Source: Candidatus Doudnabacteria bacterium (GTDB lineage: Bacteria; Patescibacteriota; Doudnabacteria; UBA920). From it: 64,000 nt of DNA. A model generated the notes under the pieces. That model was not told the DNA's origin and did no database searches. It saw nothing but the letters and a program-made list of their open reading frames with translations. Both the position numbers and the translations under genes were made by a program. This document shows positions 502 through 56,678 of this stretch, piece after piece (position 1 is the first letter of the stretch; the number at the start of each line of letters is the position of its first letter). The DNA lies in assembly GCA_963788395.1 (NCBI GenBank), contig CAWBGV010000028.1, forward strand, positions 18,102 to 82,101, given 5' to 3'.

Positions 502-1344
502 GTGTATTACTACATTTTAGACCAAGGATCACTGCCTATAGATAAATTTGAAAAACTGCAGACCGAACTTCAAGGTTTGTTGGCGGAATTTAAGATTGCA
601 GGAGAAACTTCCCGGGTAACCCCACTGCGGTCGGTAACCGACCTGGTTGATACCGCCAGCCAGCGGGGAGTGCGGACATTGGTGGCCTGCGGCAGCGACG
701 ATACATTTAATTTAATGCTGGCCGCTTTAAAAGGGCGAGACTTTACTTTAGGATTTATTCCCCTGGATCCTGAATCTTTTTTGGCCAAGATTCTGGGGGT
801 GGACAGTATTTACGCGGGCGTTAAAACCTTAGCCGCCCGCAGGATTGAGCGGATAGATTTAGCCCGGATTTCCGGAAATTATTTTATCAGTTATCTGGAA
901 TTTGGCGTAATGAGCTACAATATTAAGGCTACTGGTTGGTTTTCGGGATTAAAACTCCTGTCCAACGAACCCCGGCCTTTGGATATTCGCATAGATGACT
1001 CCTACAATATTAAGATAGACGCCTTAGGCGGTTTGGTGGCCAATACGCGGTCGAATTCCGGCCAATCAGAAGTTATTGCCAATCCTACTGACGGCTATTT
1101 GGATTTGTTGATTATAGAAAAGTTGAGCAAGACCAGCATTTTAAAATACAAGGCTGATATTGCTTCGGGGTGTTTGGAAAAAGTTCCCGGCACCACGGTA
1201 ATTAAGTGTAAAAAAATTCAATTTTTACAACCTCAGGGGTATAACCTGACGATGCTTGGCCGCATAGTCGCTAAGTTTCCCGCAGTGGTGGAAATTATTC
1301 CTCAACGGTTGCGCTTGATTGTAGGCAGAAACAGGACTTTTTAA
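502..1344 (+). CDS. diacylglycerol-kinase-family (YegS/DagK-like) lipid kinase
   Basis: 280-aa ORF with a GTG start. It has a DAGK catalytic-domain pattern (RTLVACGSDDTFNLMLAAL in place of GGDGT) and a C-terminal beta-sandwich-like part. Confidence 0.55.
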   Translation: MYYYILDQGSLPIDKFEKLQTELQGLLAEFKIAGETSRVTPLRSVTDLVDTASQRGVRTLVACGSDDTFNLMLAALKGRDFTLGFIPLDPESFLAKILGVDSIYAGVKTLAARRIERIDLARISGNYFISYLEFGVMSYNIKATGWFSGLKLLSNEPRPLDIRIDDSYNIKIDALGGLVANTRSNSGQSEVIANPTDGYLDLLIIEKLSKTSILKYKADIASGCLEKVPGTTVIKCKKIQFLQPQGYNLTMLGRIVAKFPAVVEIIPQRLRLIVGRNRTF

Positions 1345-1572: not shown

Positions 1573-3500
1573 ATGAATCTTTCTAGCCTGTCTTCTGAAC
1601 TCAATATGTCAGTCCAAGAGCTTCGCGCCAAGTCTCGCGAGAAGGGTTTTTTCATTTCGCCTCGGGCCAATAAGATTGATAATTTTTTAGCCAACCAGAT
1701 AAAAGATGCCTTTACTCCAAAAAAAGCAGTAGTGGCAACAGCGGTTGCCGCCGAGCCGAAAAAGATCAAACTGCCTTCTTTCATAAAGGTTCGGGATTTT
1801 GCCGCTTTGTTACAGTTACCGGTAGTCAATGTGATCAAGGAGTTTATTAAAAATGGCATTATGGCCACCATCAATGAAGAGGTGGATTTTGAAACGGCCA
1901 GCATTGTGGCCACTGACTTGGGTTTTGAGGTTGAAAACGAAGCTGACACAAGCCAAACCGAGTATGGTTTAGGTTTTTTGCAGGAAGTTTTAAAAGCCGA
2001 AAAAGAAGAAAATTTAAAACCCCGCGCGCCGATTGTGGCTATTATGGGTCATGTTGACCACGGAAAAACCACCTTACTCGATACCATTCGGAAGACAAAA
2101 GTGGTTGAAGGCGAATCGGGGGTATTACTCAACACATTGGTGCTTACCAAGCCAAAAAGAACGGTAAAACAATTACTTTTTTAGATACGCCCGGTCATGA
2201 AGCTTTTTCCGAAATGCGCGCCCGCGGCGCCAACGTTACCGACATAATCGTTTTGGTAGTTGCCGCCGATGATGGCGTGCGCCCGCAAACCGTAGAAGTG
2301 ATTAATCGGGCCAAATTTACTAATACACCGTTGATCGTGGCTATTAATAAAGTCGATAAACCGGACGCTAATATTATGCGGGTTAAGCAGGAACTGGCCG
2401 GCCAGGGTGTGTTAACGGAAGAATGGGGTGGTAAAGTTATAGCGGTGGAAATTTCGGCTAAACAAAATAAAGGCATAGATAGCCTGTTGGAAATGATATT
2501 GCTGACGGCAGAACTGGAAAATTTTCGCGCGAACCCTAACGGCAAAACAATAGGAACGATTATCGAATCAAAAATCAGCCAGGGCAAAGGCTCTACGGCT
2601 ACAGTGATTGTCCAAAACGGCCACTTAAAAGTTGGTGATATTATAGTTGCCGGTGCGGCTTTTGGCCGGGTACGCAGCCTGGAAGACGAAACTGGCCGTA
2701 AACTGAAAGAAGCCGGGCCATCGATGCCGGCGCAAATTTCTGGATTGTCGGAAGTTGCCCAGGCCGGAGACATCTTGCAGACTGTAGCGACCCTGGATGA
2801 AGCTAAACAAATTGCCTCGACCATTAAACGCAAGAACCGGAGCCATCATCTTTCCAGCAAGCAATCCTTGCAGGGCGATGTAGAGAACAAAACGCTTAAT
2901 TTAATTTTAAAAACGGACGTAGCCGGATCTTTGGAAGCTATCAAGCAATCTATTGCGAAATTAAAAAACGACGAAGTGCGGATTAATATTTTAAGTGAAG
3001 GCGTTGGCGAAGTTAACGAATCGGATGTGTTACTGGCAGCTAACTCCAAAGCCAGTATTCTCAATTTTCACAGCAAAGTGAATCCCAAAGCCGTGAACCT
3101 GGCCAAGCAAAAGCAAGTAATGATAGATTCTTATGACGTAATCTATGAGCTGATTGAAGACGTAACCAGCGCGGTGATTAAAATGTTTACGCCGGAACTG
3201 GAAAAGCATTCTTTTGGTAAAGCTAAAGTTTTGGCAATTTTCCGAACCGAAAAACTGCAAATGATTATTGGCGGACGCACCGAAGAAGGCGAAATCCGCA
3301 AGAATGGCCAAATTGCCATTTGGCGCGAAGACGCCGAACTTGGCCGCGGTGAAATTACCGAACTCCAACAGAACAAATCCACGGCCAAAGCAGTCGCGGC
3401 CGGCAATGAATTCGGCATGAAAATTAAGACGCAGGTTAAAATCAAAGAAGGCGACGTGCTGGAGAGTTTTGAAGAAAAGATTAAACAAAAGACATTGTAG
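1573..3500 (+). CDS. infB: translation initiation factor IF-2, one apparent frameshift
   Basis: [12 protein letters not shown] (G1), then after the shift [11 protein letters not shown].../[20 protein letters not shown], and IF-2 C-terminal domains. ORFs 1573-2184 and 2214-3500 join if one G is added to the G5 run at 2118-2122. Confidence 0.9.
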
Positions 3501-4156: not shown

Positions 4157-5122
4157 ATGGATAATTTAATTCAAGAATTTAACACAGCTAATTCGTTCAT
4201 TACTAAAGCTCAGCGCATTCTCCTGACCATGCACGAACGCATGGATGGGGACGACGGTGGAAGTCTTTTGGCGGTGGGGCGGCAGTTGGAGACAATGGGG
4301 AAGCAAGTGACTCGAGCCATTAAACGCGGCGTGCCTCCCAGTCTGGCCTTTTTGCCGGATAGTAAAAAGATTCAGGACGATATTACTTCATTAAATTTTG
4401 ATCTTTTAATTATGTTTGGTTGTTCCGTGAAAGAACGCTGCGGCAGCGAGAGTATTGTCCATTTGGCCATTCCGACGATCAACATTGACCATCACCCCGA
4501 CAATACCCATTATGGGCAGGTGAACGTAGTAGATCCTTCTAAATCCTCGGTGGCGGAATTGATATACGATTTTTTTGTTTGGAACAATTGGCGCATTACC
4601 AAAGATATTGCCACTTGTTTGCTGACAGGAATCATTACTGACACAGGATCATTTAAACACAGCAATACCCAAACTTCCACGCTCAAGGCCGCGGCAGAGC
4701 TGATGTATAAAGGCGCGCTGGTAGATAAAATTATCCGGAATACTTATAAGAATAAAAATATTAACAGTTTAAAAGCCTGGGGCAGGGCGTTTGAAAATTC
4801 TTATTACGACGAGAAGCGTAAAATTGTTTATTCGGTAATTACCGACCGCGACCTGCGCGAAATCGGGGAGCTTCCGCAAGCCGCTTTCGACGGAGTGGCG
4901 GAAATATTAAATACCGTTCCGGAAGCCAAGTTTGCCATGTTTTTACGTCAAGATGGCAACGTAATTAAAGGCAGCCTGCGCAGCGGCAATGAAGGTATAA
5001 AAAATGTGGATGTTTCCAAAATCGCCCACCTGTTCGGCGGCGGCGGCCATAAGCAAGCTGCCGGGTTTTCGGTAGTGGGGAAATTAAGTAAAGATGAACG
5101 CGGGAAATGGAAAGTGACATAA
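4157..5122 (+). CDS. DHH-family phosphoesterase (NrnA-like oligoribonuclease/pAp phosphatase)
   Basis: Motifs DGDDGGS, NIDHHPDN, and the DHHA1 motif GGGGHKQAAGF. The ATG at 4157 (MDNLIQEF) avoids the implausible basic N-terminal extension that overlaps rbfA. Confidence 0.8.
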   Translation: MDNLIQEFNTANSFITKAQRILLTMHERMDGDDGGSLLAVGRQLETMGKQVTRAIKRGVPPSLAFLPDSKKIQDDITSLNFDLLIMFGCSVKERCGSESIVHLAIPTINIDHHPDNTHYGQVNVVDPSKSSVAELIYDFFVWNNWRITKDIATCLLTGIITDTGSFKHSNTQTSTLKAAAELMYKGALVDKIIRNTYKNKNINSLKAWGRAFENSYYDEKRKIVYSVITDRDLREIGELPQAAFDGVAEILNTVPEAKFAMFLRQDGNVIKGSLRSGNEGIKNVDVSKIAHLFGGGGHKQAAGFSVVGKLSKDERGKWKVT

Positions 5123-5139
5123 CTGATCACGGATATAAA

Positions 5140-5754: not shown

Positions 5755-5838
5755 AGAAATTAAAATAGTAACCCAACAAATTTTCCCTAAAGGAAAATTG
5801 GCAAACCAACTGCTAGTAATAACTAAGCTGTTCCTTGC

Positions 5839-6199
5839 GGGGCCCCCGATCCGCCCGAGACGGATTGGGGAAAGGGGCAACAATCCGAACGTAATGGAGT
5901 CGCGTCCGACGCGGACGGAATGGAGTGAGGATTGATTATTTCCTTTTCAGGGCCCCCAATTTTCCATCCCTAGAAAAAAATCATAGGGAAAATTGGGGAA
6001 AGGGGCAACAATCCGAACGTAATGGAGTCGCGTCCGACGCGGACGGAATGGAGTGAGGATTGATTATTTCCTTTTCAGGGCCCCCAATTTTCCATCCCTA
6101 GAAAAAAATCATAGGGAAAATTGGGAAAAGGGGCAACAATCCGAACGTAATGGAGTCGCGTCCGACGCGGACGGAATGGAGTGAGGATTGATTGACCCG
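5839..6199 (-). repeat. tRNA-trailer repeat family, 3 tandem units (128-bp period)
   Basis: The unit ...ggggcaacaatccgaacgtaatggagtcgcgtccgacgcggacggaatggagtgaggattgatt... occurs three times. The junction word cagggccccc recurs at 5948 and 6076. The array abuts the CCA end of tRNA-Leu. Confidence 0.9.
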
Positions 6200-6287
6200 T
6201 GGTGCCCGGGAGAGGATTCGAACCTCCAAGCCCTTGCGGGCGCTGCCACCTCAAGGCAGTGTGTCTCGCCAGTTGCACCACCCGGGC
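6200..6287 (-). tRNA. tRNA-Leu(GAG)
   Basis: Manual cloverleaf: acceptor GCCCGGG/CCCGGGC, anticodon loop TTGAGGT, long variable arm, T-loop TTCGAAT, encoded CCA. Confidence 0.9.
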
Positions 6288-6410
6288 AAATTATTTTTGC
6301 TTCACAATTATAACTGAAACGCTGGTACAAAACAAGAGGTGCTAATAATTGTATAATCTGCTACTATACTCAATAAGGCTTACCAACTTCAAGTTGATTC
6401 TCCCGTTTTT

Positions 6411-6710
6411 ATGAAGCAGTTTCAGCGCACAATTGAAAATTTTACTTGTGAGCGCTGCGGCGCCAGGGTTATTGGCAACGGTTACACCAATCATTGCCCG
6501 CGCTGTTTATGGAGTAAGCACGTGGATATTAATCCCGGCGACCGGTCTTCTCCTTGCGGCGGCCTGATGGAGCCAATTGGTATAGAAATAAAAGGCAGTG
6601 AATATATTATCTTCCACAAATGTCAAACCTGCGGCCGCACTAAACCCAACAAAACTTCACCGCAAGACGATTTTGACGATATTATAAAATTACCGCCGCT
6701 AAATTTGTAA
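6411..6710 (+). CDS. RNHCP domain-containing protein
   Basis: FTCERCGARVIGNGYTNHCPRCLWSKHVD...CQTCG matches the RNHCP zinc-ribbon pattern. Confidence 0.7.
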   Translation: MKQFQRTIENFTCERCGARVIGNGYTNHCPRCLWSKHVDINPGDRSSPCGGLMEPIGIEIKGSEYIIFHKCQTCGRTKPNKTSPQDDFDDIIKLPPLNL

Positions 6711-6794
6711 AGGCTTTTGATGTTGCGGCTCAATTAGCCGGCTTGCAAATTAGTAACTAGACATTTTTATTTCAGCGCCGCTGGAAAGCGGTGA

Positions 6795-7517
6795 TTAATC
6801 CCGGCGACCGCCTTCTTGCTCATCTAAATTGGGGGAGCGCCGCGGAATATTGGAATCTATGTGCCCAAACGAAAATTCGTCTTCCGTCGGCGAATAATCT
6901 GGCGAGGTATTTGCTTCCTCTCTTTCCAGGTCCGCCAATTTTGCTTCGTCAGTTGCCGCAGGGCGTCTGGCTGTGAACTGCCAATTGAAGCGGTTTTCTA
7001 AAACCTTAACCTCATTACCTTTTTGCAAATACCAGCTTATAAATTTAGTCCATTGAGGTTTGTCTTTTGGCAATTCCAGCAGATTAAAATCTTTAATATT
7101 ATTATCGCGCAGATATTGTCCAAGCGGTTTTAATTCTTCTTCGTTCAGTATGTAGTAAAGCTGTTTTTGAAATTCTATAACAATTTTTCTTAAGATAGCA
7201 ATATGGGCAGAGTCTTCATAACCGGCAGATTTAAAATAACCTTCCATAAATTTGTCACCCCAAGCGCCAAGATCGGAAGGGCGTCTGAGTAAATGCTGTT
7301 TAAAATAAGATCTCGCAAAATTGGCCGCAAGACCAACTGTAGTCGGCGCAACTTGTCCATATTTATTTTGGACTTCGTTCATAACCTCGGAAACCATAGC
7401 TGGCAAAAGGTCGACTATACGCGCTTCAACCTGCTGCTGCTTTGTGTCCTCCGAATCCCGTTCATATTGATTTTCACGTTCCATAGCTTTATGCGTCTTT
7501 AATTGTTCATGTACCAA
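6795..7517 (-). CDS. hypothetical protein
   Basis: 240-aa ORF with no motif I recognise. Confidence 0.5.
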   Translation of the reverse strand: MVHEQLKTHKAMERENQYERDSEDTKQQQVEARIVDLLPAMVSEVMNEVQNKYGQVAPTTVGLAANFARSYFKQHLLRRPSDLGAWGDKFMEGYFKSAGYEDSAHIAILRKIVIEFQKQLYYILNEEELKPLGQYLRDNNIKDFNLLELPKDKPQWTKFISWYLQKGNEVKVLENRFNWQFTARRPAATDEAKLADLEREEANTSPDYSPTEDEFSFGHIDSNIPRRSPNLDEQEGGRRD

Positions 7518-28260: not shown

Positions 28261-29825
28261 ATGCAAAATAAATCTAACGCCAGTAAGTATATTGAATACT
28301 GCCGCAAGTCCTCTGACTCGGAAGACCGGCAGGTGCAATCAATTCCGGACCAACTGAAAGAATTGATGCCTTTAAGAATTGCGCGGCAGGCTAATGTTAT
28401 AAAATCTTATGGTGAATCGCAGTCAGCTAAAAAGCCCGGCCGCCCTTACTTTAACGAAATGATTAAAATGGTTGAGGACGGTAAAGCTGATGGCATCATC
28501 TGCTGGAAAATAAACCGCCTTGCCCGTAACCCGATTGACGGCGGGAAAATCCAGTGGCTGCTGCAAACCGGCAAACTCAAATCCATCCTTACGCCCGGCA
28601 AAGAATACTTACCGACTGACAATGTTTTAATGATGGCTGTTGAGCTTGGTATGGCTAACCAGTTTATATTAGACCTAAGCAAAGACGTTACTCGCGGCAT
28701 GAACACTAAGGTGCAAAAAGGCTGGCGGCCGGTTAAAGCGCCGCTTGGTTATTTAAACGATCCGGTTGGGTTGCGCGGCGAGAAAAGAATTTTTAAAGAT
28801 CCGGAACGGTTTGAGTTGGTGCAGAAAATGTGGAAGCTAATGCTTAGCGGTAATTATACTATCCGCAGGCTTCGAGACGTTATTACCAACGAGTGGGGTT
28901 TAAGAAGCAGGCAGAATAACAACACGTTAAGCTTAGGCGGCCTATACCGAATTTTTACTAACTCCTTTTACTACGGGGAGTTTACTTATCACGGCGAAGT
29001 CTTTCAAGGCAAACACGAGCCTATGAATTAGTAAAATGGAATTTGACCGAGTGCAACAGATTTTAGGCAGAGCTGGTAAGCCCAGGCCAAAATATAAGCG
29101 GCTACCATTTAACGGGCTTATTCAGTGCGGCGAATGCGGCGCCATGATTACCAGTGACGAGAAACTTAAAACCATGAAAGCCACAGGCGAAATCAAATCT
29201 TATATTTACCATCACTGCACTAAAAAGAAAAAGATACTGCCTGTTACCAAAGACCAATTAAGCACGAGGAGCTGGTTAAGCAGGTTAATGCTTATTTAAA
29301 TCTCATAACCATCCCCGAAGAATTTTTGCACTGGACCCCGTGAGGTGCTTAAATCAAACAACGAGCAGGAAGAACACGACCGCACCCTTATGTTGGAAAA
29401 CCATCGCAAGAATTACGACTCATGCCTTAAGCGCATCGATAATTTAATTAACCTGTATATTTCGGGCGATAATGCGGATAAGGAGCTTTTAACCGAGGAT
29501 GAGTTTAAAAGTCAGAAAAACGGGTTAGTGGCTGAGAAAGCGCAAATAGAGTCACAGATGCGGCAGGTTGGCGAGAGGTTAACGACTGGATGGACTTAAC
29601 TGAGAAAACGTTTGAATTTGCGACTTATGCTAAATCTTTTTTTGAAAAAGCGGATTTATGAGCAGAAGACTGACATTCTGCGCGCCTTTGGTCAGAACTT
29701 TGTGTTACAAGGCGGAAAACTTGATATTACCTTGGCTAAACCGTTCTTGGTTTTGAAAAATGGGCTAACGGAGGCATCCATTCAAATGGCTATGTCAGAA
29801 CCGGCAAAACTCTTGAGACCTCATC
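28261..29825 (+). CDS. large serine recombinase, fragmented by at least 3 frameshifts
   Basis: Resolvase N-domain (YCRKSSDSEDRQVQSIPDQ, ICWKINRLARN), recombinase domain (GWRPVKAPLGY), zinc ribbon (CGECGAMITSDE…HHCTKKK), coiled coil, and C-terminal tail. Pieces: 28261-29031, 29036-29299, 29345-29599, 29612-. The 3' end is uncertain. Confidence 0.8.
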
Positions 29826-29828
29826 GGA

Positions 29829-29854
29829 AAAAACCGCCCTTTAGAGACGGTTTT
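29829..29854. terminator. bidirectional terminator (ends the minus-strand tRNA operon)
   Basis: aaaaccg / cggtttt stem with an A-run before and a T-run after. It lies 8 nt downstream of the tRNA-Gly 3' end. Confidence 0.7.
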
Positions 29855-29935: not shown

Positions 29936-30002
29936 GTTAGGTTTTATATATTATATAGGTAACAAACAAAAGATTCAATCCAAATTGTGTAACTTAACTG
30001 TT

Positions 30003-30611
30003 CCCATCCGGGCCCTAAATTTTCTCGCCGTTTCCAAATGGAAAATTTGGGGTAAGGGGCAACACCCCGAACGTAACGGAGTGGCCGCCGAGTAGGCGGA
30101 CACGGAGTGGAGTGAGGGTTGATTGACTGTATCTTTTGGGGCCCCCAATTTTTCTAGCAAGGAAAATTGGGGAAAGGGGCAACAACCCGAACGAACGGAG
30201 TGGCCGCCGAGTAGGCGGACACGGAGTGGAGTGAGGGTTGATTGACTGTATCTTTTGGGGTCCCCCAATTTTTCTAGCAAGGAAAATTGGGGAAAGGGGC
30301 AACAACCCGAACGTAACGGAGTGGCCGCCGAGTAGGCGGACACGGAGTGGAGTGAGGGTTGATTGACTGTATCTTTTGGGGTCCCCAATTTTTCTAGCAA
30401 GGAAAATTGGGGAAAGGGGCAACAACCCGAACGTAACGGAGTGGCCGCCGAGTAGGCGGACACGGAGTGGAGTGAGGGTTGATTGACTGTATCTTTTGGT
30501 GCTCCCCAATTTTTCTAGCAAGGGAAATTGGGGAAAGGGGCAACAACCCGAACGAAACGGAGTGGCCGCCGAGTAGGCGGACACGGAGTGGAGTGAGGGT
30601 TGATTGACCCG
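30003..30611 (-). repeat. tRNA-trailer repeat family, 5 tandem units (119-121-bp period)
   Basis: The junction word tgtatcttttgg occurs at 30128, 30247, 30368 and 30488. The units are near-identical, and the last abuts the CCA of tRNA-Phe. Confidence 0.95.
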
Positions 30612-30686
30612 TGGTGCCGGGCCCCAGAGTCGAACTGGGCACGCCTGCCTCTTCAGGGCAGCGCTCTACCGATGAGCTAGCCCGGC
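30612..30686 (-). tRNA. tRNA-Phe(GAA)
   Basis: GCCGGGC…GCCCGGC, anticodon loop CTGAAGA, T-loop TTCGACT, encoded CCA. Confidence 0.9.
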
Positions 30687-30742
30687 ACGTCGTCGCACTT
30701 TATTCCGGCCTACGAGAATGAATTAAAACCAGCCTCCATAAA

Positions 30743-30941
30743 GTGTTCCTCTTCCCCAAATTCCTTTTCTCTATGTTTTTTCTTCGCTTCGCTTCGAAAA
30801 AACTAAATGTGAAAAGCAATTCGGGGTCCTGCCAATTTTCCATCCCAAATTCAATTGGGAAAATTGGGGCAAGGGGCAACACCCTGAACGTAACGGAGTC
30901 GCGTCCGACGCGACGGAATGGAGTGAAGGGTGATTGACCCG
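30743..30941 (-). repeat. tRNA-trailer repeat family, composite copy (standard unit + inverted long-loop hairpin module)
   Basis: 30823-30941 is a standard unit abutting the tRNA-Val CCA. 30743-30826 is the reverse complement of 47871-47965 in the 16S insertion. Confidence 0.85.
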
Positions 30942-31018
30942 TGGTGGGCGATAAAGGATTCGAACCTTTGGCCTCCTCGGTGTAAACGAGGCGCTCTAAC
31001 CAACTGAGCTAATCGCCC
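30942..31018 (-). tRNA. tRNA-Val(UAC)
   Basis: GGGCGAT…ATCGCCC, anticodon loop TTTACAC, T-loop TTCGAAT, CCA. Confidence 0.9.
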
Positions 31019-31223: not shown

Positions 31224-31372
31224 TATATTCAGAAAGTGCTATAGCGGCACTCTTTTTTATTGCCCGTAAGCTCTAGCAACTTTTCTGGTCACTTAGTATG
31301 TACTTTAAAAGTTAAAGTCTTATTTCCCTTTAAATTAAGGGAAATAGGGGAGAAAGGAGTTTGATTCAAAGA

Positions 31373-32080
31373 ATGAAAGCTCTTTTTACCCTTAAGTCTG
31401 CCATAAATCAGAACATGGTCTTTGCGACTATCATTCTGATCTCGTCAATCTCCTTGGTTTATCCGGAATTGGCCTTAGGCGCAAGCCTTCAGACGAACGG
31501 GCAAAACACAGCCAATCTAGTATTTGAAATCAAAGATCCAAATCAAATTCAAGATATAGTAAGTCCAGATGAAAATCAAAATTCATTAGCCTATAGTACT
31601 ATTGTAAAAGCCGATCCGTTAGTGGTTGATTTACAGAGTTATTTAGAAAAGAACAATTCACCCTTAGCGCCTTACGCGGCCCAGATAGTCCAAATGCCGC
31701 GTTGGGACGACGCCTTAGCCATTAGTTTTGTGGAAAGCAATATGTGCGTCCACCAGATTAATTACAATTGTAGCGGTATGGGCGGCGCTCCCGGCGATCC
31801 AACCTGGCATAAGTATTCAAACTATATGGATTGGTTTAAAGATATGACCAACCTGTTGAATGAACCGCTGTATGCTCAAAAGTATACTACTTTTGCTCAG
31901 ATGCGCGGCGTGTATGTCCAGCCCGGTAGTATCCAATGGGTGCATGGGGCCGAAAAAGTTAAAAGTGATTTAGTCGCCCTGCAGCAGCAAGCTCAGGCCG
32001 AACGCGCTCAAATGATAGCCAGCTATCAGACCGAGCTCGCCACTAACTCCAGTGTTACCCTTTTAGCTGATACGCAATAA
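31373..32080 (+). CDS. secreted hypothetical protein
   Basis: Signal-peptide-like N-terminus (MKALFTLKSAINQNMVFATIILISSISLVYPELALG). No catalytic motif recognised. The TTG at 31361 is too close to the SD. Confidence 0.55.
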   Translation: MKALFTLKSAINQNMVFATIILISSISLVYPELALGASLQTNGQNTANLVFEIKDPNQIQDIVSPDENQNSLAYSTIVKADPLVVDLQSYLEKNNSPLAPYAAQIVQMPRWDDALAISFVESNMCVHQINYNCSGMGGAPGDPTWHKYSNYMDWFKDMTNLLNEPLYAQKYTTFAQMRGVYVQPGSIQWVHGAEKVKSDLVALQQQAQAERAQMIASYQTELATNSSVTLLADTQ

Positions 32081-32159: not shown

Positions 32160-32234
32160 GGTGCAGTGGCGAAGTGGTAACGCGGCGGTCTGCAAAACCG
32201 CAATGCATGGGTTCGATTCCCATCTGCACCTCCA
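32160..32234 (+). tRNA. tRNA-Cys(GCA)
   Basis: GGTGCAG…CTGCACC, anticodon loop CTGCAAA, T-loop TTCGATT, CCA. Confidence 0.9.
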
Positions 32235-32345
32235 CGGGTCAATCAACCCTCACTCTGCTTCGTCCGCCTCGGGCGGACTCCGCTGCGTTCAGGTTGTTGC
32301 CCCTTACCCCAAATTTTCCCTGCTGGAAAAATTTGTGGGCCCCGA
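32235..32345 (+). repeat. tRNA-trailer repeat family, single unit (plus orientation)
   Basis: cgggtcaatcaaccctcactctgcttcg-[tccgcctcgggcgga]-ctccgctgcgttcaggttgttgcccc-ttaccccaaattttcc/ctgct/ggaaaaatttgtggg-ccccgatggg, directly after the CCA. Confidence 0.9.
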
Positions 32346-32378
32346 TGGGAACAGCAAAAGCGGGGCAAAAAGCAATAG

Positions 32379-39238: not shown

Positions 39239-39282
39239 GCTAAAAAATAAATTTTTGAAATGGGAGGATTGGTTTTATTGTT

Positions 39283-39404
39283 CCCATCGGGGGCCCCAAA
39301 TTTTCTCGCAATATCCAAAAGGAAAATTTGGGGAAAGGGGCATTGACCGAACGAAGCGGAGTCCGCCCGAGGCGGACGAAGCGGAGTGAGTAATAATTGA
39401 CCCG
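39283..39404 (-). repeat. tRNA-trailer repeat family, single unit
   Basis: Same architecture as 32235-32345. It abuts the CCA of tRNA-Ile. Confidence 0.9.
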
Positions 39405-39480
39405 TGGTGGGCGTGCTAGGACTCGAACCTAGGACCAATCGTGTATAAGACGACCGCTCTACCAACTGAGCTACACGCCC
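39405..39480 (-). tRNA. tRNA-Ile(UAU)
   Basis: GGGCGTG TA GCTC AGTTGGTA GAGC G GTCGT CTTATAC ACGAT TGGTC CTAGG TTCGAGT CCTAG CACGCCC A CCA. Positions 34-36 are TAT. Confidence 0.8.
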
Positions 39481-45156: not shown

Positions 45157-46329
45157 TTAGCTTTTTATCTTCACAAATTTTCTTTTCCCAACCTGTAAAA
45201 CTATCTCCGCCCCGGCTTCTAGTTGTATATTCTGTTCCGACACCGTCTGCTGATTCATTTTAATGCCTTTTTGATCAAACAATCGACGAGCGTCGGATTT
45301 GCTCGAAGCAAGCCCGGTATCTGTCACTAGTTGAATCACCGAGTACGTCCCCGGCTTCATTTTTTTTACTGCAATTTCTTCGGGTAATTCGCCTTTGCTG
45401 AACTGGGCAATAAAGGCCTGCTTGGCCTCGGCCGCTTTGTTAGCACTATGATATAAGGCGGTTATTTTTTCGGCTAAAATAAGTTTTTGGTCGCGGGGGT
45501 TGTTATTTTGGGAAATAATAGTCTGGATTTCTTCCAGCGGAACGCGTGTGGCCAAGAATAAAAAATTTTTTTATTAAGCCGTCATTAATAGACATTACTT
45601 TACCGAACATGTCGTTAGGCTCATCGGTAATATTAATCACGTTTCCCCAGCTGGATGACATTTTTCGGCCATCAGTCCCTTCCATCAGCACTGTCATAAG
45701 TATGTCTTGCGGAGCCTGTTGGTAGGCCGGCTGGATGGTTCTGCCGGCCAATAAATTAAAGCGCTGGTCGGTACCGCCTAATTCTACGTCGGCTTTAACC
45801 GCAACGGAATCGTAGCCTTGCATAATCGGATAGAGCAGTTCCCGAAGCGAAACCCGCTTACCGGCTTTTAACCGGAGGGCGATGTTTTCGCGGGCTTCAA
45901 ATTCGGGTGCAGCCCAAATAAATTAGCCATCCGGCCGATCTCGATAAAGCCTAATTTTTTAAGCCATTCTGAATTATAGTGGGTCTCGGTCTTTTTTTTA
46001 TCAAGTATTCTAAAAGCCTGCTCAAAGTACGTTTTGAGATTTTTTTTAATTTCCGCTTCACTGAGCATGGGACGTTCGGCGTCTTTATCGGAAGTGTCGC
46101 CAATCAGCCCGGTAAAATCTCCTACTATAAAGATAACCTTATGACCGAGTTCCTGGAACTGCCGCAGTTTCCACAAAACTACTGCCCGACCAATATGGAT
46201 ATTGGGGCTGGTGGGGTCTATACCCAGCTTTACTCTTAATTTTTTCTTGCCATTAAGCAATTGCCGCAAGTGGTCTTTTTCTATGACTTCATCCACGCCG
46301 CGGGTAAGGAGTTCGTCTATGGGGTTCAT
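45157..46329 (-). CDS. tyrS: tyrosine--tRNA ligase, two apparent frameshifts
   Basis: HIGR (HIGH motif), GGTDQRFN, KMSSS (KMSKS), C-terminal S4-like domain. Pieces: 45868-46329, 45503-45823 and 45157-45555. The shifts lie near 45913-45918 and 45548-45572. Confidence 0.9.
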
Positions 46330-46876
46330 ATGATTATATAATATCAGTTTTTTATGAACCCTTCCAACCGATCCACTTGACAACTCTTCCTAAACCCTTT
46401 AATATAACTAAGGATTTAGAAATTAAATCTTGGAGATTAAAAAAGGCATAACACCGCTAGTCCAATTTTACTCTTATGTAAGCCAAATCTGCTAACGCAG
46501 AAGGTTGATTATAAGGGGTCCGCCAATAGGTGGAAAACTAGGACACTTCAAGTAAGAAACTTGGGTGTTTTTTTAGCCCCTAATTTCCAACACTGCTCTT
46601 TAACAGCTGAATAGTGATTAGAATTTTGTACAAAACCATCGCGTCTCAATTATTTAAACCAATTGAGATGTGAAAACCCGAAAATTTCCGTCCCGGAAAT
46701 CTCGGGGTAAAGTTACGTCAATTTACTAGAGTTCAATGATAATTTATAAGCTTTAATAATTGAGCTTTTCCCAAATCAATTATGCCAGATTTGTATCATT
46801 TTGGTACGGATCGAACCGGATACTATAGATTCCGTTTGGTTAATTCCAAACACCAAGAATTTATTTATCTTTTATA

Positions 46877-46920
<44 letters not shown>

Positions 46921-47623
46921 GACATGCAAGTCGAGTGGGTTTAGACCCACGGCGAACGGGTGAGTAATACCTAGGAATGTCCTTTAAGTTGAGCATATCC
47001 CATCGAAAGATGGTGCAATACTCAATGTGAACAGTGCAAGCACTGTAGATCCCGTTACTGGAATTTACAACGCTTGCGTTTTTAAAGTCGCAAGACGCTT
47101 AAAGCGCAGCCTGGGCACCATCAGCTAGTTGGTAAGGTAATGGCTTACCAAGGCTATGACGGTTAGGGGCCCCGAGAGGGGAAACCCCCACACTGGAACT
47201 GCGACACGGTCCAGACTCCTACGGGAGGCAGCAGTTTGGAATTTTGGACAATGGGCGAAAGCCTGATCCAGCGACGCCGCGTGGACGATGAAGGCCTTCG
47301 GGTCGTAAAGTCCTTTTGCTCGGGAACAATTTTTGAGCGTACCGAGAGAATAAGAGGTTGCTAACTCTGTAAGCCCACACAGGTGGGTTGGTGCAGAGAG
47401 GGTGTAGTAATACATCCTAAGAAAATTTCGCTATATGCTGGAACACCTTGTAAGTTCTGTAGTACTTCCAAAAGAAGTGACAATCTACAGGAAACCCAAA
47501 AAAACGCACCGCTGCGTATAAGGGTTGCAAGACAATCAGCAGGCAATCCTGACGTAAATTTTTGGAAAAAAGAAAACGGAGACAGCCAGTAGCTATCCCC
47601 GTCATGTATTTGGTTTTTGGTTA

Positions 47624-47695
47624 TCATCGGTCAGCGGTTCTATACAAGATGCCGACTACCCCTACGATTACAGTAATTACGATAATCAACCACAT
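47624..47695 (-). CDS. 23-aa hydrophobic peptide encoded antisense within the 16S insertion
   Basis: aaggagg, 7 nt, ATG, MWLIIVITVIVGVVGILYRTADR*. Its stop overlaps (ATGA) the start of the 88-aa ORF 47361-47627. Confidence 0.4.
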   Translation of the reverse strand: MWLIIVITVIVGVVGILYRTADR

Positions 47696-47718
47696 ATTTC
47701 ATCCTCCTTGAACCGTTT

Positions 47719-47747
47719 AAGATAACACAAGTGGATGATCAAGTCAA
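47719..47747 (-). promoter_or_regulatory. sigma70-type promoter for the antisense peptide cassette
   Basis: On the minus strand: TTGACT, 17 nt, TATCTT, about 20 nt upstream of the SD. Confidence 0.45.
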
Positions 47748-48391
47748 TACAGTTGGCTTCCAAAAATTTGCGTCAGGCGAGCCTCAGAGACTACACGCGA
47801 AACTCCCACGTTAAGGTGGGATGATGATATAGTCCACGCTTCATGGCGACATGAAGACCTGGTCCCGAAAGGGGCCCCCAAATTGCTTTTTACATTTTAG
47901 TTTTTTCGACCGAGAGGGAGAAAAAAACATAGAGAAAAGGAATTTGGGGAAGAGGAGCGCTTCACGGAGACGGCACAAAATAAATTTACAATTTATTTTG
48001 TGGAGTCGGAGTGAAGGGCGACGAGCCAGCAGCAGCGGTAATACAGAGACCTCAAGCGTTATCCGGAATCATTGGGCGTAAAGCGTACCGATAGGTGGTT
48101 TACAAAGTCAGAAGTGAAATCCAAAGCTTAACTTTGGGACTGTCTTTTGAAACTTGTAAACTAGAGGGGCAAAGAGGAAGCTGGAACGAACGGTGTAGTA
48201 GTGAAATGCGTTGATATCGTTCGGAACACCAATAGCGTAGGCAGGCTTCTGGGTGCCACCTGACACTGCTAGGACGAAAGCGTGGGGAGCGAATGGGATT
48301 AGATACCCCAGTAGTCCACGCTGTAAACGATGATGATTAGGTGCTAGAGAGTATCGACCCTCTTTAGTACCATAGCTAACGCGTTAAATCA

Positions 48392-48442
<51 letters not shown>

Positions 48443-48446
48443 ACCT

Positions 48447-48480
<34 letters not shown>

Positions 48481-49260
48481 GTAAGCGAGGAACCTTACCA
48501 AGTCTTGACATGTACCTGCATACTCTGGAAACAGAGTAGCCTTCGAGGGTGGTACACAGGTGATGCACGGTTGTCGTCAGCTCGTGCCGTGAGGTGTTCA
48601 CTTAAGTGTGAAAACGAGCGCAACTCCTATCATAAGTTACAAGTGTCTTATGAAACCGCCGGCGTTTAAGCCGGAGGAAGGCGGGAATGACGTCAAATCA
48701 GCGTGTCTCTTACGACTTGGGCGACACACGTGCTACAATGGGGAGAACAAAGGGACGCCAAGGAGCAATCCGGAGCAAATCCTATCAATACTCCCCCCAG
48801 TTCGGATTGAGGGCTGCAACTCGCCCTCATGAAGCCGGAATCGCTAGTAACCGTGGATCAGCCTCGCTACGGTGAATACGTTCTCAGGTTTTGTACACAC
48901 CGCCCGTCAAGCCATGGAAGCGGGAAGCGGCTAAAGTACCTTTATGGTCCTAGGCCGAAGCTCGTAACTGGGGCTAAGTCGTAACAAGGCATCGGTAGCG
49001 GAAGCTGTCGATGGATCACCTCCTTTCTAAGGAACTTTATGCATCCTTTTCCCTTTTCGAAGGGGAATGTTGGTGCACATTCCATTGGTCGTCGTTAATT
49101 TTTTCGAAAATTAGCGCACTTCTTGAAACTTCAAAGAACGACGTAAACTGGTGGTTTTGTAAGGTAATTCTACCGTATTTAGCAATAAATACGGCCTGAG
49201 CGCCAAAATGCTCGGGGTCACTATTTAGCCGTTAAAGGCTTAACACGAAATTGCAAAGAA

Positions 49261-55476: not shown

Positions 55477-56226
55477 TTATAGTCCAACCGCGTTAGCTCC
55501 GTACTCTGCTTGTTCTTGTGTGAATTTATCATATTCCAACTGCGCAATTAAACTGCCGCGTGAAAAAGCTGAATAGCTCATGTAGTCTTTGGCCTTTGCA
55601 GCTGCCTCCGCATCCCAGTTAGCACCGGAATTATCTGCACCATAAGTCGCATCAGCCTGTGAAAATTGGTCGTACTCCAATTGAGCAACCAATCCATCAT
55701 GAGAAAATGCTGTGTAATTTAAATAATCTTTTGCTTTTGCAACAGCATTTTTTTGACTAACTGTTTCATTTGATACTGGTGAAGTATTTTGATTGTCTGT
55801 TTGTGGAGCTTGCGTTGGCTGCGGGGTTGCAACAGGCGCAGGTGTAGTAGCCGCTGGCTGTTTTGGTTGAGGGTTGGCAGGAATAATTGGTGCGGCTTTA
55901 GTTGTTTTTGGTGAGGTCGCTGGAGCTACCACTACAGCAGAAGCCGGGCTGGTTGTGTTTGTGACCGAGGGAATAACCGTGTTTTGATTTGCCACAGCGG
56001 CCTGCTGTTGAGGTTGGGTGGTAGCTTCATTGCTAACCGTGTTACTTTTCGGACCTGTAGCGCCGATCAAAAATAGAAATACAGTCATGGCAATCCCAAA
56101 AGTCACGCTCGTATTTATTCTATTTGCTTTGCCTCTAAAAACTTTATTAAACCACACAGGTTTAATTAAACCCATTATTAGTCCCACTACACAGAGAAGG
56201 AATAATAAAACAAAAAAACCGGACAT
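55477..56226 (-). CDS. Ltp-family surface lipoprotein-like protein
   Basis: N-terminal TM segments, a Pro/Thr/Ala/Gln-rich linker, and two Ltp-type repeats (AKAKDYLNYTAFSHDGLVAQLEYDQFSQADATYGA and AKAKDYMSYSAFSRGSLIAQLEYDKFTQEQAEYGA). Confidence 0.7.
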   Translation of the reverse strand: MSGFFVLLFLLCVVGLIMGLIKPVWFNKVFRGKANRINTSVTFGIAMTVFLFLIGATGPKSNTVSNEATTQPQQQAAVANQNTVIPSVTNTTSPASAVVVAPATSPKTTKAAPIIPANPQPKQPAATTPAPVATPQPTQAPQTDNQNTSPVSNETVSQKNAVAKAKDYLNYTAFSHDGLVAQLEYDQFSQADATYGADNSGANWDAEAAAKAKDYMSYSAFSRGSLIAQLEYDKFTQEQAEYGANAVGL

Positions 56227-56678
56227 AAGATATTACCTTTCTGCCGGCGTAGATAGCACGAAGCCCCGCGCCAGCCGATCCCTTGCGGGATCCATACCCG
56301 TTTCCGGATATGGCCATAGAAAGCTGCTGAACGCGGGGTTCAGTGCTTTCTATGGTCTTGAGCGCCATGCCACCAGCTTGCGCTGGGGGTTTAGGCATTA
56401 AGTTGTTATTTGGATTATAAATCAAAAACACCTTAAAATCAAGGTTTTTTATGCAATTATACCTTTGAGCTAAGGGGATCCTATTTTTTTGACTTACTTC
56501 TAATAATTATCACCTCTACGTTCCCATGCCAGTCAAAAATTCAGATCAGGGGTCGTCGGCCTAATATCTTTCGCTATAATATGCAACCATTATTGTATCG
56601 CCACCAATTCGATTTTTTGTTATGATAATAAAGAATTTAAGCAAAAATTAGGTATTAAATATCCTAAAATAAGACAAG

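Follow-up and report, generated by a model that had tools for sequence, protein, structure and literature searches.

Intervening sequences of rRNA that are excised by RNase III are hairpin-rich, absent from the mature rRNA and without a ribozyme, and they replace variable helices. The 16S gene in the 64,000-nt stretch of Candidatus Doudnabacteria DNA analysed here (the window) likewise carries extra hairpin-rich sequence, but here the hairpins come after a complete group I core that has P1 and P10, and the insertion site, S516, is what we take to be a classic rRNA homing site in the invariant 530 loop. In the portions of the literature drawn on here, intervening sequences are also mentioned by Tsurumaki et al. 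(2024, PMC11270868), who, like Nakagawa et al. (2026, PMC13011429), report group I introns to be common in the rRNA genes of Patescibacteria (CPR). The present insertion resembles the CPR introns described in those portions in being an ORF-less group I intron at a highly conserved 16S site of a Patescibacteria genome. The same portions of both papers make no mention of a 3' tail module or of similarity between intron ends and tRNA spacers.

Myxomycete S516 introns of group IC1 combine a conserved core with a highly variable periphery and carry arrays of direct repeats in peripheral loops (Furulund et al. 2022, PMC9223047). They share with the intron studied here the insertion after U516 and the variable periphery, whereas they are eukaryotic nuclear introns, and the extension found here lies 3' of P9, directly against the 3' splice site, and is one member of a family spread over the genome. 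We know of no report that the myxomycete repeats are shared with the flanks of tRNA genes. In ORF-less IStrons (Tourasse et al. 2014, PMC4227781), what stands between a group I ribozyme and the 3' splice site is the structured remnant of another genetic element. The same order of ribozyme and structured domain is seen here, but without IS200/IS605 or IS607 genes or ends in the window, without a conserved 5' target and at an rRNA homing site. REP/BIME, ERIC, Correia and RPE are short multicopy hairpin repeats in transcribed non-coding DNA, sometimes arranged in tandem and sometimes processed by RNase III. The units described below differ from such interspersed palindromes in their length (120-170 nt), in their two to three hairpins, in having neither terminal inverted repeats nor duplications, in lying flush, to the nucleotide, against mature stable-RNA ends and in the presence of one copy inside a ribozyme.

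The 16S gene of the window was located at positions 46870-49026 of the plus strand with the Rfam model RF00177 (1301.7 bits). Its insertion, 47371-48024 on the same strand, was recognised by RF00028 over positions 47361-47856 with 55.6 bits against a gathering threshold of 50, and the orthologous intron of a related genome (locus L001, 4688-5129) obtained 74 bits. What the sequence-only reading had treated as an unexplained intervening sequence is on these matches a group I intron after U516 of the 16S rRNA, predicted to be self-splicing. The assignment of U47370 to E. coli position U516 is our own count, and the 3' boundary of the intron is uncertain by about 1 nt. The parts of the gene are as follows:

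46870-47370, plus strand: 16S 5' exon, ending at U47370 (RF00177).
47371-48024, plus strand: group I intron at site S516 (RF00028), after which 16S resumes at GCCAGCAGC (48025); orthologous intron in L001.
47568-47757, plus strand: lineage-specific insertion at the tip of P6, not present in the L001 intron.
47838-47856, plus strand: P9 hairpin with a GCGA tetraloop (RF00028 positions 236-253), the last part within the Rfam intron model.
48023-48024, plus strand: the last two intron nucleotides, G and A, both unpaired and next to the 3' exon; one candidate for the omega-G is G48023.
48025-49026, plus strand: 16S 3' exon (RF00177), whose start GCCAGC forms P10.

Reading from the sequence, P1 is formed by CUCUGU (47365-47370) and GCAGAG (47393-47398), including the pair U47370.G47393. 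P10 is formed by GCCAGC (48025-48030) with GGUUGGU (47386-47392), giving six contiguous pairs (47387-47392) that adjoin P1, one of which is G.U in the window and G-C in L001. The other candidate for the omega-G is G48025, the first nucleotide past the terminal dinucleotide. If the exon begins at the canonical GCCAGC, both genomes have A as the final nucleotide of the intron, which ends ...GACGA in the window and ...GACGAGA in L001, whereas splicing at G48023 or G48025 would make the 16S rRNA one nucleotide too long or too short. A terminal A rather than G, with the exon starting at the canonical G517, is unusual for such an intron. An Infernal 16S alignment was dropped as a means of placing the 3' splice site, as its placement was ambiguous.

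In the Rfam alignment P6 contains an insert of 220 nt and no sequence is inserted between P3' and P8. The P6 insertion is carried by a long stem, an inverted repeat in which 47541-47567 pairs with 47758-47784, and its sequence has no second copy among all loci. It includes an antisense ORF of 23 codons (47695-47624, minus strand) with an AAGGAGG ribosome-binding site, while the sense strand of the intron has no ORF of at least 90 amino acids.

The last 168 bases of the intron constitute a separate domain 3' of P9. In RNAfold predictions it folds as three independent hairpins, even within a fold of the whole intron:

47862-47875, plus strand: first hairpin (hp0), GUCCC-GAAA-GGGGC (RNAfold).
47876-47949, plus strand: long hairpin (hp1) with the family stem CCCCAAAUU/AAUUUGGGG (inverted repeat and RNAfold).
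47950-47953, plus strand: unpaired AAGA linker, the start of a purine-rich motif AAGAGGAG (47950-47957) that continues into the base of the next hairpin.
47954-48022, plus strand: long irregular hairpin (hp2), the 'module' of the sequence-only reading (inverted repeat and RNAfold).

The long hairpin CCCCAAATT...AATTTGGGG proposed earlier is thus present, with a span of 47876-47949 instead of 47871-47965. The second proposed hairpin also contains the expected ACGGAG (47964-47969) and GGAGTGAAGGG (48008-48018), and the string quoted for it begins at 47950 and not at 47966. Its arms of 30 nt (47957-47986 and 47990-48019) are 80% complementary, the closing pair extends the hairpin to 47954-48022, and two GGA/GGA internal loops are seen, a symmetric one having its strands at 47966-47968 and 48008-48010. 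As had been proposed, the element ends at the junction with the resumed 16S sequence, at 48024 directly before GCCAGCAGC, to within about 1 nt. A counterpart of hp0, TGTTCCCATCGGGG, opens the first or sole repeat unit behind the tRNAs for Phe, Leu, Cys and Ile. The 11-mer GGAGTGAAGGG recurs at 30920-30930 beside tRNA-Val, and the pattern GGAGTGARGG with at most one mismatch was found 15 times in comparison with 4.2 expected, a count reached by none of 100 shuffles. Two other readings of the tail were set aside. The linker AAGAGGAG, which resembles a ribosome-binding site, was considered for a coding role, and a well spaced AUG is found only in the leader of tRNA-Phe (a 9-codon ORF), the other copies having no start codon. 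Pairing between tail and exon was searched with RNAduplex and is uninformative, as shuffled tails reach equal or better energies.

The tail has counterparts upstream of tRNA genes. The element is a previously undescribed folded RNA family, probably specific to a Doudnabacteria-like lineage, of which the intron tail is one copy. It consists of an hp1 stem, (C)CCCAAAWU/AWUUUGGG(G), the purine linker AAGAGGA, hp2 and two to three unpaired nucleotides (GACGN), and its hp2 is built from short Watson-Crick runs between symmetric internal loops of the G.A type (GGA/GGA, UGAA/UGAA). The intron tail has this architecture throughout, from the hp1 stem and AAGAGGA linker to an hp2 with G.A-type loops and the ...GACGN end. 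Its closest relative lies in the window itself:

30687-30839, minus strand (sense): tRNA-Phe leader element with hp1, AAGAGGA, hp2 and CGACGACGU, ending at position -1 of tRNA-Phe.

Between this leader and the tail nhmmer gives an E-value of 4.1e-17, and a Smith-Waterman score of 120 compares with a maximum of 28 among shuffled sequences. We used a covariance model, R3, built from eight tRNA leaders and zero intron sequences. It scores the Phe leader at 47.1 bits. In the window it matches the tail at 47940-48024 with 43.2 bits (E 7.1e-7, model positions 1-83), and in L001 it matches the tail at 5040-5124 with 50.1 bits (E 2.2e-8), both matches spanning the full length and stopping at the exon junction. 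Similarity of the tail to tRNA-linked units, as put forward from the sequence, is thus statistically significant for the leaders, and the same module is indeed found in the 16S insertion of a related genome.

All eight leader units, from six genomes, lie on the sense strand and end at position -1 of the tRNA (seen in the window and at the loci L008, L009, L012, L014, L015 and L019), and the element stands directly 5' of the 16S 3' exon in two genomes, the window and L001. In tRNA operons it makes up the 5' leader or the complete spacer between two tRNAs; in L019 a single unit is the entire Val-Phe spacer, from CCA to +1. The nucleotides preceding +1 of the pre-tRNA are GU or GC in leaders, and the corresponding ends are GA in the window intron and GAGA in the L001 intron. 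The idea of a shared module at stable-RNA boundaries holds in this form, and more strongly than had been noticed, at tRNA +1 in six genomes and at the 16S 3' exon in two, and the tie is primarily to tRNA 5' leaders and not to 3' processing sites as had been supposed.

Structure statistics for the leaders were taken from a MAFFT alignment in which structure played no part in the fitting. Paired bases are found in 85.5% of cells, as compared with 30-44% in slid controls, and compensatory changes, which support the pairs of hp2, occur at 16 of 21 pairs. On the sense strand G.U outnumbers A.C by 12 to 5, and in 18 of 19 units the fold of the G/A-rich strand is more stable than that of its complement, by 4-21 kcal/mol. 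Conservation is also seen in the loop nucleotides forming G.A pairs and in two motifs, AAGAGGA and GACG, the purine motif being AAGAGGA or AAAGAGGA in most leader units. Such conserved, compensatory hairpins are equally to be expected where a recombinase recognises DNA in the form of folded single strands. A hammerhead-like CUGA...GAAA in the leader of L014 proved on inspection to be a tandem G.A internal loop, with no fitting cleavage triplet or stems.

The repeat family behind tRNA genes, from which the similarity had originally been proposed, is real. It comprises 11 units in the window behind five tRNAs, each unit lying on the opposite strand and ending 3 nt from the encoded CCA:

29996-30608, plus strand (G/A-rich): tandem array of five trailer units, antisense to tRNA-Phe (30612-30686, minus strand), 90.8-98.1 bits.
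30826-30938, plus strand: single trailer unit of tRNA-Val (30942-31018, minus strand), containing GGAGTGAAGGG, 94.8 bits.
5826-6196, plus strand: array of three trailer units at tRNA-Leu(gag) (6200-6287, minus strand), 71.6-86.7 bits.
32238-32362, minus strand: trailer unit of tRNA-Cys (32160-32234, plus strand), occupying most of the Cys-Leu spacer, 95.3 bits.
39270-39401, plus strand: trailer unit of tRNA-Ile (39405-39480, minus strand), 79.7 bits.

The scores are those of R2, a covariance model made from trailer units alone. By TRF the Phe array, whose last unit is the one 3 nt from CCA, has 4.7 copies of 120 nt at 97% identity, and the Leu(gag) array has 2.6 copies of 128 nt at 99%. R2 finds the tail of the window with 18.6 bits, ranked right after the true trailers (60-98 bits), and the tail of L001 with 28.3 bits, at E-values of 0.012 and 3.4e-5 that are rough for this model. 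A profile HMM of the trailers matches the L001 tail in hp1 and linker only (E 2.8e-6), whereas by primary sequence nhmmer finds nothing better than E>10 between the window tail and the trailer units in either direction. The ranking and scores of R2 and the HMM match suggest that the kinship is real but distant, despite the negative nhmmer search. The description of the tail as a divergent trailer member is thus probably correct as to a distant relationship, and leaders are the closer relatives.

Trailers are marked by the invariant internal loops GAACG.A / AGUGA and by the 3' end GGGUUGAUUGAC, which is followed by CCG and the CCA of the tRNA on the other strand. These hallmarks are absent from the tail, where GCGCUUCAC/GUGAAGGGC are paired at the positions of the trailer loops, the end is GCGACGA and the host's sense strand is used. 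The orientation opposite to the host that had been noted applies to the trailer subfamily only, since the closest relative of the tail, the Phe leader, is on the sense strand. Trailers are 93% paired, with compensatory changes at 11 of 16 pairs, and their G.U and A.C counts (2 and 1) are uninformative on the strand. Because trailer units are transcribed as their C/U-rich complement, an RNA function common with the leaders is doubtful. Judged by these models, the trailers are a more distant, inverted sister subfamily of the leader element. One trailer-type unit, in L014, lies within an mRNA 5' UTR and not at a tRNA.

Over linker and hp2, the introns of the window and of L001 share 90.7% identity, and their alignment has 0 gap columns. 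Over all columns, the ribozyme segments of the two introns are 79-81% and the exons 86-94% identical (85-88% and 94-95% ungapped), and hp2 is thereby conserved better than the ribozyme core. In contrast, hp1 of the tail cannot be aligned to the hp1 of the orthologous intron, which is short, whereas it is about 88% identical to hp1 of the Phe leader in the same genome, including an exact run of 29 nt. The hp1 stem word occurs 24 times in the window, each time inside a unit. Among orthologous tRNA spacers, the one between Phe and Gly is 1 nt long in L012 and L017, holds one leader unit in L014, L015 and L019 and is the site of the five-unit trailer array of the window. Between Val and Phe there are only 20-45 nt in L015, L016 and L017. 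The elements are dispensable at particular spacers. Leader units are also kept at orthologous positions where the neighbouring protein is only 44-56% identical to that of the window.

Rfam 15 gave no match to the tail up to E = 1, and for the regions 29950-30950 of the window and 5240-5480 of L012 no family up to E = 5 beyond the tRNA gene and sub-threshold chance matches (E>0.6). A serine recombinase at 28261-29850 and two tyrosine recombinases downstream of the 16S gene were considered as mobility partners. The former is a fragmented large serine recombinase of an integrated element, and neither it nor the latter two have a demonstrable link to the units. A scan of viral contigs with the trailer junction pattern gave 0 matches; with the 3' arm of hp2 it gave 5, of which the one inspected lies in GC-rich coding sequence and is coincidental.

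We favour, with moderate confidence, the interpretation that the tail is a structured spacer RNA module of this Doudnabacteria-like lineage, co-opted as a 3' peripheral domain of the intron that presents the 3' splice site. The element would act in cis, as RNA: a rigid, self-contained hairpin domain would sequester the discarded spacer and leave a single-stranded link of 2-3 nt before the reactive phosphate, which would be the RNase P site in pre-tRNA and the docking point of omega-G and P10 in the intron. The intron tail would leave with the intron by self-splicing. Position and conservation suggest this cis-acting role as a 'boundary domain'; to our knowledge, there is no known case in which RNase P cleavage is aided by a stable hairpin 2 nt upstream of its site. 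As DNA, copies would spread and be homogenised by duplication, unequal crossing-over and gene conversion; exchange at the DNA level is suggested by an hp1 that is like that of the Phe leader yet unalignable to that of the ortholog, and by arrays with 97-99% identity. RNase III, RNase J and PNPase are among the ribonucleases kept by CPR bacteria (PMC12641178), which makes hp2 a plausible point of RNase III entry or of decay as well.

That the likeness between the tail and the tRNA-linked units arose by chance or shared base composition is scarcely credible. It is true that a single-sequence nhmmer search finds no match between tail and trailers, and that their common 11-mer stands in a different structural register in each; against this are the E-values with R3 (7e-7 and 2e-8), by nhmmer to the Phe leader (4e-17), with R2 (3.4e-5 and 0.012) and with the trailer HMM (2.8e-6), together with the confinement of all 24 hp1 stem words to units. 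For the leader family, these comparisons already refute chance. We also consider it very improbable that a transposon of the IS200/IS605 or IS607 type, fused to the intron and since decayed, left the tail as its right end or as its guide-RNA (omega RNA) scaffold, with flanking exon or tRNA sequence as the guide. There are precedents for ORF-less IStrons in which no more than a stem-loop is kept (PMC4227781). The layout would fit, with a 5' ribozyme, a further structured module that follows P9 and precedes the 3' splice site, and an element that stops precisely where the flank starts, and a guide-RNA role would explain units that point at the gene from either side. Yet neither the window nor any of 17 related loci (L001, L007-L022) has a tnpA or tnpB gene or a remnant of one, no conserved pentanucleotide precedes the units, their flanks being TTAAC, TTTGC, TTTAT and TAAGC, and the intron sits at a classic homing site of rRNA. 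IStron ribozymes are of class IA2 with P7.1 and P7.2 (PMC4227781), whereas the Rfam alignment shows nothing inserted between P3' and P8 here. A selfish repeat, close to the mobile element aimed at stable-RNA genes that the sequence-only reading also offered, is a tentative alternative of more weight. The element would be non-autonomous mobile DNA without RNA function, whose folded single strand is recognised by a putative recombinase or nuclease; it would insert beside stable-RNA genes, or merely be tolerated in discarded transcript segments including introns, and the intron tail would simply be a copy that had inserted 3' of P9 and ahead of the splice site. Several observations suit this: the multicopy state with nearly identical tandem arrays, the patchy occurrence among orthologous spacers, the four contexts (antisense trailer, sense leader, intron tail and mRNA 5' UTR), units that always end ...GAC with a junction GAC/CCG/TGG identical in six tRNA species, the exchange of hp1 between the tail and the Phe leader, and homing-endonuclease genes (LAGLIDADG_3, HNH_3, GIY-YIG) in the same spacers of relatives. 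It is opposed by the Pfam search of about 50 window ORFs, which revealed no transposase (TnpA), TnpB, HUH or Y1/RAYT protein, and by window units that lack the terminal inverted repeats and duplications of MITEs, the ends CTGTTCCC... and ...GATTGAC not being inverted copies and no target-site duplications flanking the units. Nor do the units fit REP repeats, which are palindromes of 20-40 nt with a GTAG head and an associated RAYT gene. Retention of leader units at orthologous positions beside such diverged proteins and conservation of the intron's hp2 above the ribozyme core also speak against it.

A common processing signal, as the sequence-only reading had suggested, would involve one trans-acting endonuclease or cofactor that defines tRNA 5' ends and cuts, or helps to release, the 16S 3' segment. 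We regard this as quite improbable. In both contexts the architecture and strand are the same and the end lies 0-3 nt before the mature 5' end, with the G.A loop pairs and the AAGAGGA and GACG motifs conserved. A variant in which splicing uses G47856 after P9, the factor then removing the tail, might be drawn from the end of the RF00028 match at G47856 and from the ACC at the start of the tail, which can make an alternative P10 of 3 bp; the real 3' exon, however, forms a 6-bp P10 abutting P1, with its G.U replaced by G-C in L001. Removal of a group I intron requires no shared excision signal, and cutting without ligation would break the 16S rRNA in the 530 loop. RNase P needs no leader structure, and many orthologous tRNA leaders have no element. 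The patchiness among orthologous spacers and the unit in an mRNA 5' UTR are likewise unlike an obligatory processing signal. A related reading, which we think rather unlikely, takes hp1, linker and hp2 as the recognition site of a dedicated trans-acting factor marking the 5' boundaries of stable RNAs or, as a variant, as a new kind of mobile DNA, homing from either side on stable-RNA genes at their mature ends. The factor may be a nuclease or an RNA chaperone in a lineage without RNase E, and the intron may have captured its site, so that the factor also governs 3' splice-site use or decay.

Where the peripheral domains of CPR rRNA introns come from has seemingly not been asked before. Here, a conserved structured element without an Rfam entry supplies, as a copy, the entire 3' domain of one CPR intron. 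This element stands a few nucleotides ahead of the reactive phosphate both in RNase P cleavage and in group I exon ligation, two processes that are unrelated. In practice, both 16S-based surveys and the annotation of tRNAs can go astray on the tail and the tRNA-linked arrays. A functional element would point to a so far overlooked level of stable-RNA processing in bacteria whose ribonucleases have mostly been lost. A selfish one would mean that repeats and homing-endonuclease genes crowd the discarded parts of stable-RNA precursors in very small genomes, and that introns can be assembled from such parts.

The 16S rRNA gene of the window (46870-49026; RF00177, 1301.7 bits) is broken at 47371-48024 by an insertion that is a group I intron. 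RF00028 was matched full-length at 47361-47856 with 55.6 bits, the gathering threshold being 50. As read from the sequence, P1 pairs CUCUGU of the 5' exon (47365-47370) with GCAGAG (47393-47398), which puts the customary U.G pair at the splice site, and P10 abuts it by pairing GCCAGC (48025-48030) with the six nucleotides immediately 5' of the guide sequence (47387-47392). By our own count, the insertion site follows U516 and precedes G517 (E. coli numbering). The Rfam intron model ends with the P9 hairpin (47838-47856, GCGA loop), and the remaining 168 nt (47857-48024) are here called the tail.

A pattern derived from the tail was used to find a second carrier, a GTDB genome (MAG MFD03726.bin.1.241, locus L001), whose 16S gene has the same S516 intron (RF00028, 74 bits) with an identical tail layout. 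The exon-intron junction agrees between these two independent assemblies. If the 3' exon starts at the canonical G517 (48025), the last intron nucleotide is A in both genomes (...GACGA in the window, ...GACGAGA in L001), which would be unexpected given that P7, GACUA/UAGUC in our own reading of the RF00028 alignment, has a G-C pair, as is usual, at the position where guanosine binds. With omega-G at 48023 or 48025 instead, the 16S would exceed the consensus or fall short of it by one nucleotide. Frameshifts split several window genes, among them a large serine recombinase adjoining tRNA-Gly (28261-29850, four ORFs) and IF-2 and tyrosyl-tRNA synthetase (1573-3500 and 45157-46383, two or three ORFs each). 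These are either real pseudogenes or frameshifts, or assembly indel errors, and single-nucleotide conclusions in the window call for caution.

The two 16S genes also differ elsewhere. A 190-nt insertion at the P6 tip of the window intron (47568-47757) is absent from the L001 ortholog and has no second copy in any locus. Within it, an ORF that runs antisense to the rRNA (47695-47624, minus strand) specifies a hydrophobic peptide of 23 residues, MWLIIVITVIVGVVGILYRTADR, with a perfect AAGGAGG 7 nt upstream of the ATG; this layout resembles a small membrane-toxin-like gene antisense to a highly transcribed RNA. Near E. coli position 1400 the L001 gene is interrupted again, by some 890 nt (6003-6895) containing an ORF of 154 codons; the window gene has no counterpart of this insertion. 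The 5' domain of the window 16S is about 45 nt longer than that of L001 (window about 47040-47100).

RNAfold predicted three independent hairpins for the tail, and the prediction did not change when the whole intron was folded.

Hairpins of the intron tail
47862-47875, hp0, GUCCC-GAAA-GGGGC
47876-47949, hp1, long hairpin with stem CCCCAAAUU/AAUUUGGGG, inverted repeat I3
47954-48022, hp2, after linker AAGA, inverted repeat I1 with 30-nt arms, 80% complementary

A symmetric internal loop in hp2 opposes GGA (47966-47968) to GGA (48008-48010), with C-G and G-C closing pairs on either side, and two nucleotides, G and A, separate hp2 from the 3' exon. The description in the sequence-only reading is thus right, but for slight shifts of coordinates; the string quoted there starts at 47950 and not at 47966.

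The closest relative of the tail is a tRNA leader and not a trailer. As a single nhmmer query the tail had only one further match in the window, at 30691-30829 (minus strand, E 4.1e-17), with a local alignment score of 120 against 16.6 +/- 2.5 (maximum 28) for shuffled sequences. The matched stretch is the sense-strand 5' leader of tRNA-Phe, ordered hp1, AAGAGGA, hp2 (CACUUUAU-GGA-GGC...GCC-GGA-AUAAAGUG), CGACGACGU and tRNA +1. Related genomes were found via homologues of the neighbouring gene, the named ones of which belong to Candidatus Doudnabacteria, and seven further leader units were identified in them, all ending at tRNA -1.

Leader units in related loci, sense strand
before tRNA-Phe: L012 and L019
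before tRNA-Gly: L019, L014 and L015
before tRNA-Asp: L008
before tRNA-Met: L009

The Val-Phe spacer of L019, from CCA to +1, consists entirely of one leader unit. Scored against a plain MAFFT alignment of these eight leader sequences, the hp2 structure had 85.5% of the cells paired and compensatory changes in 16 of 21 pairs (slid controls 30-44%), with 12 G.U pairs versus 5 A.C mismatches on the sense strand.

Family membership was evaluated with covariance models. The leader model R3 was seeded on the eight tRNA leaders only, making the test of the intron tails non-circular. It matched both tails full-length and ending at the exon junction, at 47940-48024 in the window (43.2 bits, E 7.1e-7) and in L001 (50.1 bits, E 2.2e-8). 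The model R2, built from trailer units only, ranked four non-trailers right after the true trailers, all full-length and on the G/A-rich strand. The first two, the L008 Asp leader and the L001 tail, are nearly level (28.4 and 28.3 bits; E 3.3e-5 and 3.4e-5); the window tail comes next at 18.6 bits (E 0.012), and then the window Phe leader (E 0.13). The L019 Phe leader obtained 25.3 bits with R2. Conversely, trailers gave E values of 0.14-2.3 with R1, another leader model, and 0.14-0.86 with R3. From these reciprocal scores the two families are akin, yet the tail does not itself belong to the trailer units. The earlier proposal of a divergent trailer-family member is borne out in part: there is a distant kinship (R2 E 0.012), but the closest relative is the leader. 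The common 11-mer GGAGTGAAGGG lies in different structural registers, as loop plus paired arm in the tail and in a loop-E-like internal loop in trailers. No Rfam 15 family covers the element. In L009, a third, intermediate unit (589-673, plus strand; 32-39.7 bits with R1/R3) lies between the trailer and leader units of one spacer and suggests that the two subfamilies form a continuum.

The tRNA-linked repeats of the sequence-only reading are real. With a profile and a covariance model, both made from array units, 11 trailer units were recovered in the window; they follow tRNA-Leu(gag), Phe, Val, Cys and Ile. TRF reported arrays at 5864-6193 (128 nt x 2.6 copies, 99% identical) and 30040-30608 (120 nt x 4.7 copies, 97% identical). 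In every case the G/A-rich strand of the unit runs antisense to the tRNA, and terminal units all end in GAUUGAC, after which come CCG (3 nt) and then the encoded CCA in complement. Of the hp1 stem word AAWTTKGGG, 27 copies were counted in the window against an expectation of 7.3, and 24 of them are inside units or the intron tail. A metagenome scan that did not assume tRNA linkage gave three loci, in all of which the unit likewise abuts tRNA-Met. The second hairpin of trailer units is well supported (93% of cells paired, 11 of 16 pairs compensatory; slid controls 31-43%) and consists of Watson-Crick runs of 2-6 bp split by purine loops (GA/GA, GNA/GNA), with GAACG and AGUGA invariant.

Between the two introns, linker and hp2 are 90.7% identical without gap columns. 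With every alignment column counted, identity is 79-81% in the ribozyme segments and 86-94% in the exons (85-88% and 94-95% when gapped columns are ignored). The hairpins hp0 and hp1 vary freely: hp1 of L001 is short, CCCCAAAUUUCC...GGGAAAUUUGGGG, and trailer-unit-like (trailer HMM E 2.8e-6), and the long hp1 of the window tail is about 88% identical to hp1 of the tRNA-Phe leader of the same genome. Such a mosaic indicates DNA-level exchange among dispersed copies.

The 5' UTR of a homologue of window gene 31373-32080 contains a trailer-type unit (L014 4855-4975, R2 59.6 bits), flanked by a promoter-like TATAAT with a short hairpin and by a ribosome-binding site. Its end, GATTGGC-CCG-TAG, resembles the tRNA-side junction GATTGAC-CCG-TGG, and it ends in GUUGGCCCGA, as does the L009 589-673 unit. 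The window gene itself has in its 5' UTR (31330-31372) a hairpin AUUUCCC...GGGAAAU followed by AGGGGAGAAAGGAG as ribosome-binding site, which resembles the hp1-plus-purine-linker part of the family.

Free-standing homing-endonuclease-like ORFs (LAGLIDADG_3, HNH_3, GIY-YIG) stand in place of hairpin units in tRNA-adjacent spacers of relatives, in Val-Phe and Cys-Leu spacers and elsewhere. In this lineage, selfish elements seem to settle in the spacers of tRNA operons quite generally.

Homing-endonuclease-like ORFs
L014, 2030-2749
L016, 5910-6581
L019, 2939-3679, Leu(gag)-adjacent
L010, 6935-7408
L022, 5858-6103, Gly-downstream

In two loci (L008 1957-2374, L009 894-1240) a GIY-YIG ORF separates a complete tRNA-Met gene from a displaced, partial copy of that gene, the copy running from anticodon loop to CCA in L008 and being interrupted in the T arm in L009. 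This looks like endonuclease-driven insertion into the tRNA gene with an intact copy restored. Additionally, a LOOT RNA, a described motif (RF03000, type sRNA), was found at 56277-56397 on the minus strand (88.9 bits, gathering threshold 46.4), upstream of a lipoprotein-like gene (55477-56226).

A purely selfish repeat is a rather unlikely explanation. The mobile element considered earlier, taken as a classical one, is made less likely by the absence of transposase, TnpB or HUH genes among about 50 window ORFs and the called genes of related loci, and of terminal inverted repeats and target duplications. An IStron-like origin is very improbable. The nearest analogies are ORF-less IStrons (PMC4227781) and the repeat arrays in peripheral regions of myxomycete S516 introns (PMC9223047). 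CPR rRNA and tRNA introns have already been surveyed (PMC11270868, PMC13011429), with no mention of the tail module in the portions covered.

A processing factor shared in trans by these sites is improbable. The excision or processing signal proposed earlier is not supported as an obligatory one, since the intron would account for its own removal, an mRNA 5' UTR in L014 carries a trailer-type unit on its sense strand, and orthologous spacers may have units in one genome and none in another. The spacer between tRNA-Phe and tRNA-Gly measures just 1 nt in L012 and L017; L014, L015 and L019 have a single leader unit there, L016 has an ORF, and the window has a five-unit array.

Function is supported by structure and loop purines kept over deep divergence (the neighbouring protein is only 44-61% identical in those genomes), by units placed to the nucleotide beside mature ends, and by the strong conservation of hp2 in the intron. 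We prefer, at about even odds, to see the element as a self-contained RNA domain of discarded spacer which the intron has co-opted as its 3' peripheral domain. It would act there like P9.1-P9.3, holding the 3' splice site 1-2 nt past a rigid helix, and in pre-tRNA it would do likewise, lying in front of the RNase P site. As CPR bacteria retain RNase III, RNase J and PNPase (PMC12641178), hp2 is also plausible as an RNase III entry or decay site. Copies of the domain may have spread via duplication and gene conversion.
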